DNA of 45,850 nucleotides from Promethearchaeota archaeon. GTDB lineage: Archaea; Asgardarchaeota; Lokiarchaeia; Sigyniarchaeales; SOKP01. Below, piece by piece: positions 3,178 through 8,360 of this stretch; the first letter of the stretch is position 1, and every line of letters starts with the position of its first letter. The notes under the pieces were generated by a model. The model was not told the origin of the DNA. It ran no database searches and saw only the letters and a list, made by a program, of their open reading frames with translations. Position numbers and translations under genes: made by a program. The DNA is taken from positions 1 through 45,850 of the forward strand of contig JBHLMP010000031.1 of NCBI GenBank assembly GCA_048938025.1, read 5' to 3'.

Positions 3178-4254
3178 TTATACCTCCATTATAATTCGTT
3201 TTTGTTTCAGATTTGGATCAGTATTGTTAATAGGTAGATTACTTGTTCTGGGATTAATAAGATCTATAAAGAGGTCTTCAAGTAAACCTGCTTTTGGTAC
3301 AGAAAATTCAATTACCTTATAATCATGTCTTAGGAGAACCTTTAGTATTTTTAATTGATTTTTAGGATTTCCATCAAATAATATCTGGAATATTTTGGCA
3401 TCTTTTTTATAATTTAACCAATTTATCTTATTGGAAACTCCTGTATATGGAGTAATTATTTCTTTTAAATGATTTAATACACTCTCCAAATTATCTTCTT
3501 CAGGATGATCAAGTAATTCAATATTAATAATACTCTTTTTAGCTTTAGATTCTAAATTATCAATAGTGTCAAAAGCAATGATTTTTCCTTTATTTATTAT
3601 TGCGATCCTGTCGGCAACTTCACTAATCTCATAAAGTAAATGACTACTAAGAAATATTGTTTTACCCATTTTTTTTAAATCTAAAATAAAATCTCTTACT
3701 TCTCTTCTTGCTTGAGGATCTAATCCTGTTTGCGGTTCATCTAAAACAACAATATCAGGATTATGAATTATTGCAGAAGCTATACCTATTTTTTGACGCA
3801 TCCCTTTTGAAAAAGTTTTAATTTTCTTATCTATCCAATTGATCATTCCAAACATTTCGATAACATCCTCAATTCGTTGATTAACTTTATTTTTAGGATA
3901 TCCCTTAAGCTTAGCAAAATATTTCAAAATCTGGCGTGGTGTTACATTCCCATAGAAAGCAGGATTTTCTATTAAAAATCCAATATTATCCAATAAAAAG
4001 TCTTTATTATGGCTTGATAATTTTTGTAATTTTCCATTACCACGAATCCAAATTTCTCCTTTTGTAGGTTTTAGAAGGTAAGCCATCATCTTCATAGTAG
4101 TGGATTTACCAGCACCGTTTGGACCAAGAAATCCGACTATTTCACCCCTTTTTATATCAATATTGATATTAGAAACAGCATGGAAATCCTCGAATTTTTT
4201 TGTAAGGTTTTTAAAACGAATAATTACATCATTCTTGTCTGAGTTCATTTTCAT
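3178..4254 (-). CDS. ABC transporter ATP-binding protein
   Basis: Walker A GPNGAGKST, signature FSKGMRQK, Walker B VVLDEP, H-loop SSH. Confidence 0.95.
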   Translation of the reverse strand: MKMNSDKNDVIIRFKNLTKKFEDFHAVSNINIDIKRGEIVGFLGPNGAGKSTTMKMMAYLLKPTKGEIWIRGNGKLQKLSSHNKDFLLDNIGFLIENPAFYGNVTPRQILKYFAKLKGYPKNKVNQRIEDVIEMFGMINWIDKKIKTFSKGMRQKIGIASAIIHNPDIVVLDEPQTGLDPQARREVRDFILDLKKMGKTIFLSSHLLYEISEVADRIAIINKGKIIAFDTIDNLESKAKKSIINIELLDHPEEDNLESVLNHLKEIITPYTGVSNKINWLNYKKDAKIFQILFDGNPKNQLKILKVLLRHDYKVIEFSVPKAGLLEDLFIDLINPRTSNLPINNTDPNLKQKRIIMEV

Positions 4255-4585
4255 TGTTTCTTTTACTTTGACTTTTAAAAAACAAAAAAAATGAATTGAA
4301 TTTTAAATTTTTATAGACCAATTTTTAAGAAGAATAATAAAAGGAAAAAAATGTTAAACACTTAAACCTTAATTTTTGATTCAAATAATATTAAAATCTT
4401 GAGAAATTTTTTGTTATAATTATCATGTCTTATCCTAAGAGATATGAAAAATGATAATAATTGGATTTTAATAATATAGACTATTTACAAGATCATAAAT
4501 ATATTTTTTGATTAGCAATTCTTGATATAGGAAAGTAGAAAAGAAGAAACCTATGGAGGAAAGAATTAAACACAAGGTGTATAAA

Positions 4586-6562
4586 TTGTCTGGAAAACAG
4601 ACCAAGGATAATAATGAACCAGAATTGCCAATTGTTGGCGTTTTCGTGTGTCGCTGAGGAATAAATATTGCTGGTATCTTAGATGTCCCGAGAATTGTTG
4701 AAGAGCTTAATAGATTAGAAGGTGTAAAAGCTTTTGAATATCTTAGTATGTGTACTGAAGGAGGATCATCTTATATAAAGGAGCAAATTGAAGAAAGTAA
4801 AATTGAGAGAATTGTTGTAGCTGCTTGTACTCCTAGAACTCATCAACCAGTTTTTCATGCTATACTTGCTGAAGCTGGTTTACCTCCTAGATATTTGGAA
4901 TTTGTTAATATAAGAGAACATTGTAGCTTTGTTCATCAAGCTCCAGAAGTACGTGAAAAAGCAATTCAGAAAGCAATTGAACTCATAAAAGCAGGAATAG
5001 CACGTTCTAGATTATTAGAAGATGTTCCAATAAGAGTAGTACCTGTTAAGCCGGTGGCTCTTGTTGTCGGAGGAGGAATTGCTGGATTATCTGCTGCTGT
5101 CGATTTAGGTGATGCTGGATTTAAAGTCTATCTCGTTGAAAAGAATACAACGATTGGGGGTAGGATGAGTCAATTAGACCGAACATTCCCAACAGATGAT
5201 TGTTCAATATGAATTCTCGGTCCTAAGATGTTAGAGGCAAATCGTCATCCAAATATTGAGATTTTATCATATAGTGAAGTTATTGAAGTCGATGGATATA
5301 TTGGAAATTTTAAGGTTAAAGTTAAAAAGAAGTCAAGATTTGTAGATGATATTAAATGTACAGGTTGTGGAGCATGTCCAGAAGTATGCCCTATTTATGT
5401 ACCTAATTATTTTGATGAAAATCTTTCAGCAAGAAAATGCATTGATATCGCTTTTGCTCAAGCTGTTCCTGCAATTTTTGATATTGCAAGAGAATCTTGT
5501 GTAGAATGTTTTGCTTGTGTTGATTCATGTGAAGAAGATGCTATTGATTTTAGTATTCAAGATAAAGAAGTTGAACTTGAAGTTGGTACTATAATTGTTG
5601 CTACAGGGTGGGATCTCTATCAAGGATCAGATTATGGATATGGTACTTTCGATAATGTTATAAATCAAATCGAGTTGGAGCGGATTCTTGCACCTAATGG
5701 TCCCACTTATGGACATTTAAAACGGCCGTCTGATGGGAAACGTCCTACCAAAGTATTATTCATTAATTGCGTAGGATCGAGAGACATAAATAAAAATGCT
5801 CATTGCAGTGTGATATGTTGTAATTTATCTCTTAAAAACTCAAAACTCATCAAATCAGAATATCCTGATTCCCAAATAGTTTGTTGTTATATAGATATGA
5901 GATGTGCAGGAAAAGATTATGAAGAGTACTATAGACGTTCACGAGAAAAAGGAATTATCTTCTTAAAAGGAATGGTTGGTAAAATTGAAGAAGATCCATT
6001 AACTAAAAATCTAAAAGTACAGTTTGAACCTGTTGGTACAGATACAATTGTCGAGATGGAGTTTCATATGGTTATATTATCATCAGCATCACTCCCATCT
6101 AAAGGTACTGTAGAGATCGCGAGAGTTTTAAATATGGAAAAAAGTCCAGATGGGTTCCTAAAAGAATTTCATGCTCGACTTGATCCAATCAGTACAAAGG
6201 TCCCTGGAATATATATATGCGGTTCAGCTCAAGGGCAAAAAGAAATTGATAAAGCAGTCAGCCAAGCAAAGGGGGCTGCATCTACAGCAAGTATCCCAAT
6301 GAGTAAAAAAGAATACGTTATGGAGTTAATTCGGGCTACACCTTTAGATGAACGTTGTGCCAAATGTTACAAATGTATAGAGTCATGTCCATATAGTGCG
6401 ATTTCAGTAAATGAGAAAGGAAATCTAGTAGTGGATATTATTTTATGCCGAGGATGTGGAACTTGTGAATCTGTTTGTCCTTCTAAAGCAATTGAGTTAA
6501 CATATTTTAGAGATGATCAATATATGGCATTAATTGATGCATTACTTCCTATTGGGGATTAA
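4586..6562 (+). CDS. hdrA: Heterodisulfide reductase subunit A, selenoprotein (Sec at codons 24 and 209; 658 aa)
   Basis: TTG 4586 after aggtgt. ORF-track pieces 4748-5212 and 5228-6562 are in the same frame. TGA 4655-4657 reads VGVFVCR-U-GINIAG (CxCG motif) and TGA 5210-5212 reads FPTDDCSI-U-ILGPKM. Also GGGIAG FAD motif, HCSVICC and ferredoxin CxxCxxCxxxCP motifs. Confidence 0.93.
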
Positions 6563-6575
6563 AGAGGTTAATAAT

Positions 6576-7031
6576 ATGACAGAAAAAGAAGATATTAAAA
6601 TTATAGCATTTTTATGCTGGAAATGAGGATATGGATCAGCGGACATGGCAGGAACTATTCGAGCTCAATATCCATCATCTATTAGAACAGTTTTAGTTCC
6701 TTGTACAGGAAGAATTGGATCAGATTTAGTGATGCGTGCGTTTGGAAGAGGTGCAGATGGCGTCATGATTATTGGATGATACCCTAAAGAATGTGATTAT
6801 GAAACAGGAAATTATTTTGCATATCGTCTAGTTGAATACTTAAAAGAGGTTTTAAAAGCTATAGGGATTAATCAAGAGCGGTTATATTTCGGATATTGTA
6901 CTGCGGCTGAAGGTCAAAAATTTCAAATCAAAGCAACAGATTTCGACAAAGTAATACGTAATTTAGGTCCAAGTCCTTTACATACTAAAGGCGGCACACC
7001 AGAAAAAGCGAAAGCGAAAGCTGAAGCTTAA
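6576..7031 (+). CDS. mvhD: MvhD/VhuD [2Fe-2S] hydrogenase delta subunit, selenoprotein (Sec at codons 17 and 68; 151 aa)
   Basis: ATG 6576 after gagg. Reads AFLCWK-U-GYGSADMAG (TGA 6624-6626), VPCTGRI, ADGVMIIG-U-YPKECDYETGN (TGA 6777-6779), AAEGQKF, ending at TAA 7029-7031. Missed entirely by the ORF track. Confidence 0.93.
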
Positions 7032-7037
7032 AAATTA

Positions 7038-7109
7038 ATGTGTTAACTAATGATTCTGAGTTAGAAAAATGAGAACTCAGTTGAAGAAATGGTTGCACCA
7101 TTGACACAT
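7038..7109 (+). promoter_or_regulatory. Eukaryote-type (Lokiarchaeal) SECIS element
   Basis: Basal helix atgtgtta(a)/(t)tgacacat. Core A-UGAU (7050-7054) opposite UGAA (7082-7085) gives tandem G.A/A.G. Upper helix ctgagtt/aactcag with A-rich apical loop agaaaaatgag. Starts 7 nt after the mvhD stop. Confidence 0.88.
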
Positions 7110-7220
7110 AAAATTGTAATATTAATAATTATAAAATTGGAAAAAAAAATTATAGATAGGAATATTTAAGAAAATTTTTTTAAGAAAAAGTTAAATTTAA
7201 GAATATAGAGTTGGAATTAC

Positions 7221-8360
7221 ATGGATGCAATGGCAGAATATCTAATAAAAATAGAAGATTTTCCCAAGATTTTAGAAACATTATTAAAAGAAAAAGTAGT
7301 AGATAAGATAATTGGAGCCGAAACTAGAATAGATAAAAAAACTGAAAAAGAAGATAGGTTTACTGTACAACCTAAATTATATGAAAAACCGGAAGATGTC
7401 AAGGCTTTCCCATTAACAAATCTAATTACATATGGGTATGCTAGAACCGATTCAGCTTCAAAATATTTACATAAATCAGTAGAAGGAGCAATGAAAGAAA
7501 AAGTAGCACTCATTGCTCGACCTTGCGATACAAGAGCTTTAATCGAATTAGCAAAAATAAGACAAGTCAATTTAGAAAATTTATTTATCATCGCTTTTGA
7601 AGATAGAGGAATGGTAATTAATGTATCACGGCAAATGAGAAGTTATAAAGACATCGATCCTACAAAAGTAGTTAAAGAAAAGATTGGAGATAAAGGATTA
7701 ATCCTTCAATTTGATGATGGAAAAACCAAAGAAATTGATTTACATATTGCAGAAAATTGTTCAAGATGTACAAGAAAAATCCCTGTTGTAGCAGATTTAG
7801 GAATTAGTGATTTAGGAATTCCAATAGATTCAGATGAAATTATTTTAAAAGTGTATTCTGACAAAGGGAATGAAGTATTAGAAAAGTCAAAAATAAAAAC
7901 AAAACCCATTCCAGATGATGTTAAAAAGTCCCATATGGATAAGATAAAGGAAATTAAAGAGAATGCAATAGCTAAAAGAGCAAAAGATTTAGAAGAATGG
8001 GGAAAACTTTCACAAGAAGAAAAAATGGCTAAGCTTCAAGACTGTACTATGTGTAATACATGTATTCGTGGATGCCCAGTTTGTTATTGTGTTGATTGTA
8101 TATTACAAAAGAAACGAAAAGAGAAAATAATTAATAAAGAAACGTATCAATTAACTCGGATTGCTCATGTTGCAGACCGTTGTATTGAATGTGGTAATTG
8201 TGATAATAACTGTCCACAGCACTTACCATTATCTCTATACTTTCAATCATTAAATGAAGCATTTAAAGAAAAATTTAAATATTCATCCGGAGAAAGTGTA
8301 GATGATATACCTTTCCGTTCTGGAAAGGCAATTGCTGAGATGGAATTAGAAAAAAGTTAA
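7221..8360 (+). CDS. FdhB/FrhB-family (F420-dependent dehydrogenase beta) subunit with 4Fe-4S clusters
   Basis: KVALIARPCDTRALIELAK, CSRC, CTMCNTCIRGCPVCYC, CIECGNCDNNCP. Confidence 0.85.
   Translation: MDAMAEYLIKIEDFPKILETLLKEKVVDKIIGAETRIDKKTEKEDRFTVQPKLYEKPEDVKAFPLTNLITYGYARTDSASKYLHKSVEGAMKEKVALIARPCDTRALIELAKIRQVNLENLFIIAFEDRGMVINVSRQMRSYKDIDPTKVVKEKIGDKGLILQFDDGKTKEIDLHIAENCSRCTRKIPVVADLGISDLGIPIDSDEIILKVYSDKGNEVLEKSKIKTKPIPDDVKKSHMDKIKEIKENAIAKRAKDLEEWGKLSQEEKMAKLQDCTMCNTCIRGCPVCYCVDCILQKKRKEKIINKETYQLTRIAHVADRCIECGNCDNNCPQHLPLSLYFQSLNEAFKEKFKYSSGESVDDIPFRSGKAIAEMELEKS

Follow-up and report, generated by a model that had tools for sequence, protein, structure and literature searches.

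The window analysed here is a stretch of 45,850 nucleotides (nt) from a Promethearchaeota archaeon (contig JBHLMP010000031.1 of assembly GCA_048938025.1, C26 in our numbering), the genome of which amounts to 3.5 Mb with 30% G+C. Promethearchaeota and Promethearchaeia are the current names of the Loki-type Asgard archaea, and the nearest public relatives at the locus are metagenome-assembled genomes that carry these labels (77-81% identity for MvhD). A gene for the heterodisulfide reductase subunit HdrA is followed, at a distance of 13 nt, by a gene of the mvhD/vhuD type. Both genes contain two in-frame UGA codons, and a predicted selenocysteine insertion sequence (SECIS) lies just behind the second gene (Table 1). 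The 13-nt gap, the four UGAs distributed over two cistrons and the distance of about 2.4 kb between the first UGA and the SECIS were claimed in an initial annotation of this DNA, and all of them were recovered on reading the coordinates. The arrangement suggests that one RNA element serves UGA codons in two different cistrons.

Table 1. Features of the hdrA-mvhD locus, in positions of the window.
Feature	Position	Strand	Evidence or remark
Promoter-like, A/T-rich, TATA-like conserved block upstream of hdrA	4454..4497	+	alignment of 25 orthologues
hdrA coding region (heterodisulfide reductase subunit A)	4586..6562	+	Pfam FAD/4Fe-4S domains; PDB HdrA
UGA 1, hdrA codon 24 from TTG 4586 (codon 35 from ATG 4553)	4655..4657	+	
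UGA 2, canonical HdrA selenocysteine position	5210..5212	+	
hdrA-mvhD spacer, 13 nt	6563..6575	+	opens with AGAGGT, a Shine-Dalgarno-like motif abutting the hdrA stop
mvhD/vhuD coding region (FlpD family)	6576..7031	+	Pfam PF02662, E 4.9e-42
UGA 3, mvhD codon 17	6624..6626	+	
UGA 4, mvhD codon 68	6777..6779	+	
Whole SECIS element, predicted three-way junction	7038..7109	+	R1 covariance model, fold, orthologue alignment
SECIS lower helix	7038-7044 with 7103-7109	+	
SECIS kink-turn arm	AUGA 7050-7053; stem 7054-7062/7074-7082; loop 7063-7073; GA 7083-7084	+	
SECIS second hairpin	7089-7092 with 7098-7101	+	
FrhB/FdhB-like iron-sulfur gene	7221..8360	+	Pfam PF04432, E 1e-10; no TGA; syntenic in orthologues

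Searches of the PDB matched the hdrA product to the solved HdrA 9sfi_A (E 3.8e-206) and the mvhD product to the solved MvhD 9sw2_D (E 3.7e-34). The mvhD frame extends from the ATG at 6576 to the TAA at 7029-7031, and the hdrA frame ends with the TAA at 6560-6562 and opens either at the ATG at 4553 or at the TTG at 4586. Two sets of loci were collected for comparison. A DNA search of 61 related genomes yielded 28 full-length orthologous loci of the same genus (74-78% identity), 24 of which were analysed; a wider Asgard set comprises 71 hdrA-mvhD loci, for which the UGA sites were read by tblastn. As these loci are related to each other, the contrast in stop codons between hdrA and mvhD, given below, is no formal probability. 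TTG 4586 is probably the true hdrA start: its column harbours TTG, ATG or GTG in 25/25 orthologues, preceded by an invariant GGTG, and the in-frame ATG at 4553, which overlaps a conserved GGAGG, is present only in the window and in one orthologue, L024.

The four UGAs occupy conserved sites. All are TGA in 25/25 orthologues, and the wider loci have TGA at the first site in 56 of 64 cases (with Cys codons in the other 8), at the second in all 67 loci covering the position, at the third in 70/70 and at the fourth in 69/70. UGA 1 aligns with a Cys residue of 9sfi_A and UGA 2 with the X that marks selenocysteine (Sec) in the same chain, while UGA 3 aligns with Cys in both 9sw2_D and 5odc_D, and UGA 4 with Cys in solved MvhD. 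The recurrence of the same codon at four sites in every orthologue argues that these UGAs are under selection. Two further conserved Cys positions of HdrA (columns 50 and 75 of the codon alignment), which have Cys codons in the window, are occupied by TGA in 3 of the 25 orthologues each, indicating that Sec and Cys interchange within one genus.

The predicted SECIS begins its core AUGA 18 nt past the mvhD stop, so that the distances from the UGAs to this motif amount to 2395 and 1840 nt for hdrA and to 426 and 273 nt for mvhD. The AUGA motif is located directly 5' of the main stem and is invariant in the SECIS alignments, and the GA dinucleotide directly follows the stem on its 3' side, where the lokiSECIS class has GA or AA. 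Stem and loop have a 9+11+9 geometry. Seven standard pairs are formed in the window, where the two basal positions are U-U, and all nine pairs are present in 16 of the 19 orthologous loci in which the pattern scan described below found the element (24 loci scanned). Of the 11 nucleotides of the apical loop, eight are A; position 2 is G, and the loop ends with AG. Most contigs of three DNA sequencing runs (at least 85% likeness) have A rather than G at loop position 2 (7064), restoring the consensus adenine run.

The minimum free energy fold of the element has -15.9 kcal/mol (z -2.4), and RNAalifold returned the same 20 pairs for the 25 orthologues, with 98% of the cells paired. These sequences are too conserved to provide much covariation (2 of the 20 pairs changed on both sides), and the SECIS block is much more conserved than the adjoining non-coding DNA. 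We assign the element to the Lokiarchaeota-type SECIS (lokiSECIS, eSECIS-like type I), which is predicted to direct Sec insertion. Its stem is shorter than that of eukaryotic SECIS elements, and no SECIS match at the Rfam gathering score was found in the window; even at E≤10, no Rfam SECIS family (including RF00031, the eukaryotic one) matched between 4200 and 7300, where the sole match was a chance small RNA with E 6.1.

The initial annotation identified only one AUGA/GA element, located after mvhD. Since no Rfam family matched it, a model of our own was made for the search for others. The genome was scanned with the pattern (A/G)UGA, 9 nt, a loop of 10-12 nt, 9 nt and (G/A)A, with the inner seven pairs required, which gave 91 matches at 89 distinct usable places. 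A covariance model, R1, was built from the ten matches that share an A-run loop ending in G as well as similar flanks. Because the inner seven pairs had been required beforehand, the pairing count on the ten-element alignment is partly circular, and it was not used as evidence for the stem. Against its own genome R1 retrieved the ten training elements and a single weak extra match (E 0.5). With filters off, its match in the whole window was at 7038-7096 (43.1 bits, E 3.6e-6), the next best having an E value of 0.62. None of the 26 other matches in the window at E≤10 is on the plus strand of 4255-7037; one is on the minus strand at 5191-5260 (E 6.5).

The same picture emerged from the relatives. 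R1 found exactly one match at the homologous site in each of the 24 same-genus loci (22 at E<0.01, the other two at E 0.14 and 0.16); hdrA, its leader and the spacer were free of matches in all 24. In 64 of the 71 wider loci a match is found just behind mvhD; the other 7 gave none, and one of these is truncated where its contig stops. A loose scan for the GAA_A motif of euryarchaeal SECIS elements detected none in the leader or the gene junction, and its 3 matches in the 2675-nt unit compare with 2.2 +/- 2.2 in shuffled sequences, none of them with at least two G-C pairs. The claim of a sole AUGA/GA element thus held against a covariance-model scan of hdrA, its leader and the spacer.

We consider, with a probability of about 82%, that hdrA and mvhD constitute a bicistronic unit in which the one 3' SECIS (7038-7109) serves all four UGAs. 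Transcription would start at the block at 4454-4497, which is almost invariant in 25/25 orthologues between divergent flanks and is probably a promoter. The gene upstream of hdrA (3178-4254) is divergent, on the opposite strand, and hdrA therefore needs a promoter of its own. A scan for sigma-70 promoters and bacterial terminators was set aside, not being applicable to an archaeon. In 25/25 orthologues, AGAGGT (or a motif differing from it by one base) comes after the hdrA stop, and the spacer measures 4-16 nt; for 67 of 69 loci of the wider set, its estimated length is between -5 and 25 nt. A 13-nt spacer harbouring a ribosome-binding motif argues for translationally coupled genes on a polycistronic mRNA.

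Mechanistically, the 3' untranslated region (UTR) of this mRNA would carry the single eukaryote-like kink-turn SECIS. Tethered to the same RNA molecule, it would recruit the Sec-specific elongation factor with Sec-tRNA(Sec), and this recruitment would license the two UGAs of hdrA and the two of mvhD for Sec. Such a signal is expected to act by proximity on the mRNA and not by scanning, so that neither the hdrA stop nor re-initiation at mvhD would interrupt it. A ribosome that starts on hdrA ahead of SECIS synthesis would probably stop at codon 24 and yield no more than a very short peptide, so that early failures would cost little.

The stop codons of the two genes are consistent with this long reach. 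Among 69 loci hdrA ends with TAA in 38 and TAG in 31, and never with TGA, while TGA is the first stop of mvhD in 18 of 68 loci and an ordinary stop in this genome (280 of 2028 long open reading frames (ORFs), or 13.8%). Avoidance of TGA by hdrA would be explained if a terminal UGA were recoded by the distant SECIS, an argument that has been published and to which we add a larger tally.

Alternatively, a recoding signal specific to hdrA and belonging to no recognised class might lie, for instance, in the leader or the coding region, the SECIS after mvhD then serving mvhD only. Both search tools are blind to such a signal, as R1 detects only the class of elements it was trained on and the GAA_A pattern is likewise restricted to a known class. 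The leader of most of the 25 orthologues contains, just after the promoter-like block (the region of window positions 4498-4550), a hairpin that varies in sequence and covaries among them. On the other hand, it has no clear copy in the window or in L024, and it harbours neither an AUGA/GA nor a GAA_A motif. Synonymous sites are conserved at the starts and the 3' ends of both genes, but no excess of synonymous conservation was found downstream of any UGA (z -1.6 to +0.8; 25 orthologues), which argues against local recoding structures of the bacterial type or of the Sec redefinition element (SRE) type. The avoidance of TGA as the hdrA stop, expected if the downstream SECIS reaches it, and the history of an hdrA gene on contig C87, described below, also count against a separate signal, and we regard it as improbable.

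Nine other SECIS elements of the genome place the shared element after mvhD in context (they are on contigs C15, C29, C54, C66, C72, C76, C77, C85 and C87). Including that of the window, the ten elements follow four hdrA-mvhD pairs, one hdrA gene alone, a VhuU-like ORF, a peroxiredoxin-like ORF (AhpC/TSA, E 3.8e-23) and three others. Seven of the ten are located directly behind an identifiable UGA-containing ORF; for those on C66, C72 and C77, the upstream gene is unassigned or has no Pfam match. Each of the four Sec-type hdrA-mvhD pairs has one SECIS after mvhD, whereas none of the seven Cys-type FlpD genes has an R1 match nearby. At C87:40150-42244, an hdrA gene containing two UGAs continues in frame into the final ~15 codons of an mvhD and its SECIS, almost all of mvhD being absent. 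Retention of the SECIS with hdrA after loss of mvhD is what the shared-SECIS model predicts. The stop codon of this fusion is the UGA of the AUGA core itself, as is that of the paralogous mvhD on C85.

Sec machinery is present in the genome. It codes for SepSecS (385.7 bits), and a tRNA-Sec-like gene with a UCA anticodon adjoins the SepSecS gene (C48:22637-22753, minus strand). ARAGORN did not find a tRNA-Sec, and the Rfam tRNA-Sec model gave sub-threshold matches only; the tRNA-Sec-like gene scores 34.6 bits against a threshold of 47 because of a 31-nt insertion in its T-arm region.

These data bear on another possibility, namely that the hdrA UGAs are decoded without a SECIS in cis, either in trans from other mRNAs or by readthrough as Cys or Trp. 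No SECIS-binding protein is known in Asgard archaea according to the text of Huang et al. 2024 (PMC11227280), but we found nothing that directly favours this view. It is at variance with the use of TGA as an ordinary stop, and with the location of SECIS elements next to Sec genes and not next to their Cys paralogues. It also sits poorly with a locus of Helarchaeota Hel_GB_B (L143, 2125-2245), in which the hdrA-mvhD spacer is ~114 nt long and contains a complete second SECIS (R1 26.5 bits), another one being located after mvhD; a cis SECIS is thus kept for hdrA where the spacer is long. Decoding without a cis element appears even less probable than a separate hdrA signal. L143, the only wider locus with a second coding-strand R1 match between the genes, has the same gene pair and UGA positions, and its SECIS elements are of the same class, including the lower helix and the second hairpin. 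Detection of its spacer element by R1 serves as a positive control, since it shows that an hdrA-specific SECIS is visible where there is one. The two-SECIS locus looks like the unmerged state of the arrangement.

The least probable of the alternatives is that hdrA and mvhD are transcribed separately and that hdrA transcripts end before the SECIS, its UGAs acting as stops in a broken gene or one that yields fragments only. A TATA-like stretch in the last ~20 codons of hdrA, where synonymous conservation is raised (z ~3) and a TAT-ATG is invariant, might be an internal mvhD promoter. Yet the hdrA frame of 658-669 codons is open except for TGAs at Cys/Sec positions in 25/25 orthologues and also in the wider loci, the 13-nt spacer contains no oligo-T terminator, and the arrangement persists across many lineages.

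Several observations nevertheless weigh against the shared SECIS, among them the possible internal promoter, the covarying leader hairpin and the restriction of R1 to a known class, all mentioned above. The window element has the lowest score of the ten in the genome, with U-U at the two basal stem positions. Among 22 sequencing runs listed with related sequence, one is an RNA run (0.05 share of sampled words); its contigs, which come from relatives and are ~84-94% identical, cover parts of hdrA and mvhD, but none of those listed bridges 6563-6575 or covers 7004-7211, and the depth over the SECIS is 0. Finally, the text of a 2026 review (PMC13188914) records no experimental test of an Asgard SECIS. 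The initial annotation proposed long-range recoding on a polycistronic mRNA; all sequence tests that were run agree with the recoding, while co-transcription, like the binding factor and Sec insertion, is still inferred.

The surroundings of the kink-turn arm revealed an additional structural feature. When folding was constrained to keep the SECIS arm paired, each of the ten genomic elements took the form of a three-way junction: the kink-turn arm is joined by a lower helix that closes the structure and by a small second hairpin, which abuts the lower helix on the 3' strand. This topology was obtained for 10/10 true elements versus 19 of 79 decoy pattern matches from the same genome (Fisher p 3.9e-6), and the folding energy of the flanks is -9.9 kcal/mol for the true elements compared with -5.9 kcal/mol for the decoys (p 8e-5). 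The best R1 matches in 29 other genomes of the genus have the topology in 28 cases. An earlier version of the test, with the arm forced unpaired, gave 2/10 versus 5/79 (Fisher p 0.18) and was replaced, as it distorted loop energies; the flank energy was already lower for the true elements in that version (p 0.0024).

Support for the additional helices came from a MAFFT alignment of 38 elements that was fitted to no structure and left out L059 (some bases missing) and L053 (a duplicate of the genome analysed here). The lower helix is paired in 82.5% of the cells, with changes on both sides in five of its six pairs; one of these pairs is C-G in 19 elements, U-A in 12 and U-G in 3. The second hairpin reaches 91.7%, with three of four pairs changed on both sides. 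Such values were attained by none of 500 shuffles, and slid pairings did not exceed 60%.

At the level of secondary structure, the Loki-type SECIS elements are modelled as k-junction-like. A k-junction is described by Wang et al. 2014 (in the text of PMC4005666) as a kink-turn with a third helix inserted in its non-bulged strand. The SECIS matches this topology, its second hairpin being placed on the 3' (non-bulged) strand with the GA of the non-canonical helix on one side and the lower (canonical) helix on the other. The SECIS differs by having 2-5 unpaired bases between the GA and the hairpin, and the likeness concerns predicted secondary structure alone. Section 11 of Mariotti et al. 2016 (PMC4989117) does not mention the second hairpin, which the figures or supplements of that paper may show. 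A search of the text of Huang et al. 2024 (PMC11227280) for such a hairpin or junction found only the k-junction, cited in the Discussion for the GA_AA pairing alone, and the figures or supplements may likewise show the hairpin. Judged by their titles, none of the papers retrieved on SECIS elements and three-way junctions deals with Asgard archaea.

A doubtful extension of this model would be that the shared element is a k-junction rather than a simple kink-turn hairpin, and that its conserved third helix is the Asgard-specific determinant. With SBP2 lacking, this helix would bring in the Sec elongation factor or else an L7Ae-like adaptor and give the element the strength to license UGAs throughout the mRNA, over 2.4 kb, a stop codon and a re-initiation, with UGA 1 at codon 24 acting as a cheap abort point before the SECIS exists. 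We regard the three-way junction as a candidate structural refinement, which offers experimenters a concrete target for mutation.

The shared-SECIS arrangement is already known, as it was published in 2016 and generalised in 2024, and the window is a further instance in a related genome. According to the text of Mariotti et al. 2016 (PMC4989117), every HdrA-VhuD pair of Loki has just one lokiSECIS in common, placed downstream of VhuD; as many as six UGAs spread over ~2 kb may depend on one element, and the HdrA stop is always UAA or UAG. The text of Huang et al. 2024 (PMC11227280) adds that in Asgard genomes hdrA is invariably found next to frhD, and that one eSECIS-like structure is common to the two genes in almost all cases. 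The initial annotation was thus right that the class of element is not new, eukaryote-like Loki SECIS elements having been published, but the inference of a shared SECIS that it put forward is also in print (PMC4989117). The locus of the window corresponds to the published description in its tandem of hdrA and vhuD/mvhD with a very short spacer, in the multiple UGAs of both genes and an hdrA without a UGA stop, and in the single element just after the second gene, with AUGA, a stem of nine positions, an 11-nt A-rich loop ending in G, and GA. Nothing essential sets it apart, the differences being the two U-U basal mismatches and the G at loop position 2, along with the three-way-junction context described here, of which we found no mention in the published text (a statement that does not extend to figures and supplements).

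With eukaryotic SECIS elements, such as those of selenoprotein P mRNAs, the Loki-type element shares its location in the 3'-UTR, the AUGA/GA kink-turn core, the unpaired adenines of the apical loop, and action over kilobases on several UGAs, as given in the texts of PMC4989117 and PMC11227280. In contrast, the eukaryotic elements belong to monocistronic messages and need SBP2, which the latter text reports as not found in Asgard genomes.

The SECIS of Methanococcales and Methanopyrus resembles the Loki-type element in being an archaeal element of the 3'-UTR, but it has a different fold, with the GAA_A bulge motif that does not occur above chance in the unit of the window. To our knowledge, each selenoprotein gene of these Euryarchaeota has its own SECIS. 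According to the text of PMC9622424, UGA-SECIS distances from 88 to 679 nt are compatible with function of the euryarchaeal SECIS in vivo, and the 3'-UTR element of Methanococcus maripaludis is active in vivo over 520-679 nt, apparently with similar efficiency. The distance from the first UGA in the window is ~3.5 to 4.6 times that M. maripaludis range. The initial annotation had found such long-range recoding at odds with tightly coupled transcription and translation. This is a fair conceptual point, and a stronger one here, but it is not peculiar to this locus, as the same problem applies to every archaeal 3'-UTR SECIS.

Action of one 3' RNA element on a codon 2.4 kb away in another cistron would be the most extreme long-range recoding known, the credit for which goes to the published discovery. 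As it concerns the archaeal lineage closest to eukaryotes, it bears on the origin of the eukaryotic SECIS system, and it also bears on how recoding coexists with coupled expression of the prokaryotic kind. What is added here is a well-controlled instance, a larger tally of hdrA genes without a UGA stop (0/69), an outgroup locus with two SECIS elements and the three-way-junction refinement; the junction and the Helarchaeota locus are modest additions to the published work. The question can be addressed at the bench, since the cultured Promethearchaeum syntrophicum MK-D1 shares the gene arrangement (L144, 2960-3570): hdrA, a 13-nt spacer and mvhD in the same order, with TGAs in both genes, two of them in mvhD. 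At the MK-D1 locus, R1 found no SECIS with an E value of 1 or below; AUGA motifs are present 3' of mvhD there, with an 8-bp helix flanking them.

The taxonomic reach of R1 was surveyed in the 61 related genomes at E≤0.001. Matches were found in 36/36 genomes of the same genus (1-10 per genome), in 0/19 genomes of other genera of the same order and in 1/5 of the same class, which may reflect either divergent SECIS elements or patchy Sec use outside the genus. Downstream of the SECIS, the spacer of 64-115 nt before the frhB-like gene has partly conserved motifs. A candidate second SECIS at 8242-8294 (R1 15.6 bits, E 0.83) was rejected, as it is located within the TGA-free coding region of that gene and lacks the 3' GA. 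It has counterparts in L024 (5286-5338) and L037 (5294-5355), with 15-19 bits and E 0.5-0.8, and these matches are probably conserved coding sequence only.

One of the ten genomic elements follows a short ORF of unusual composition. At C77:4364-4699, on the minus strand, an ORF of 112 codons contains two adjacent in-frame TGAs (Sec-Sec), with the SECIS 8 nt downstream. It has no Pfam match at E≤0.01 and may represent an undescribed selenoprotein.

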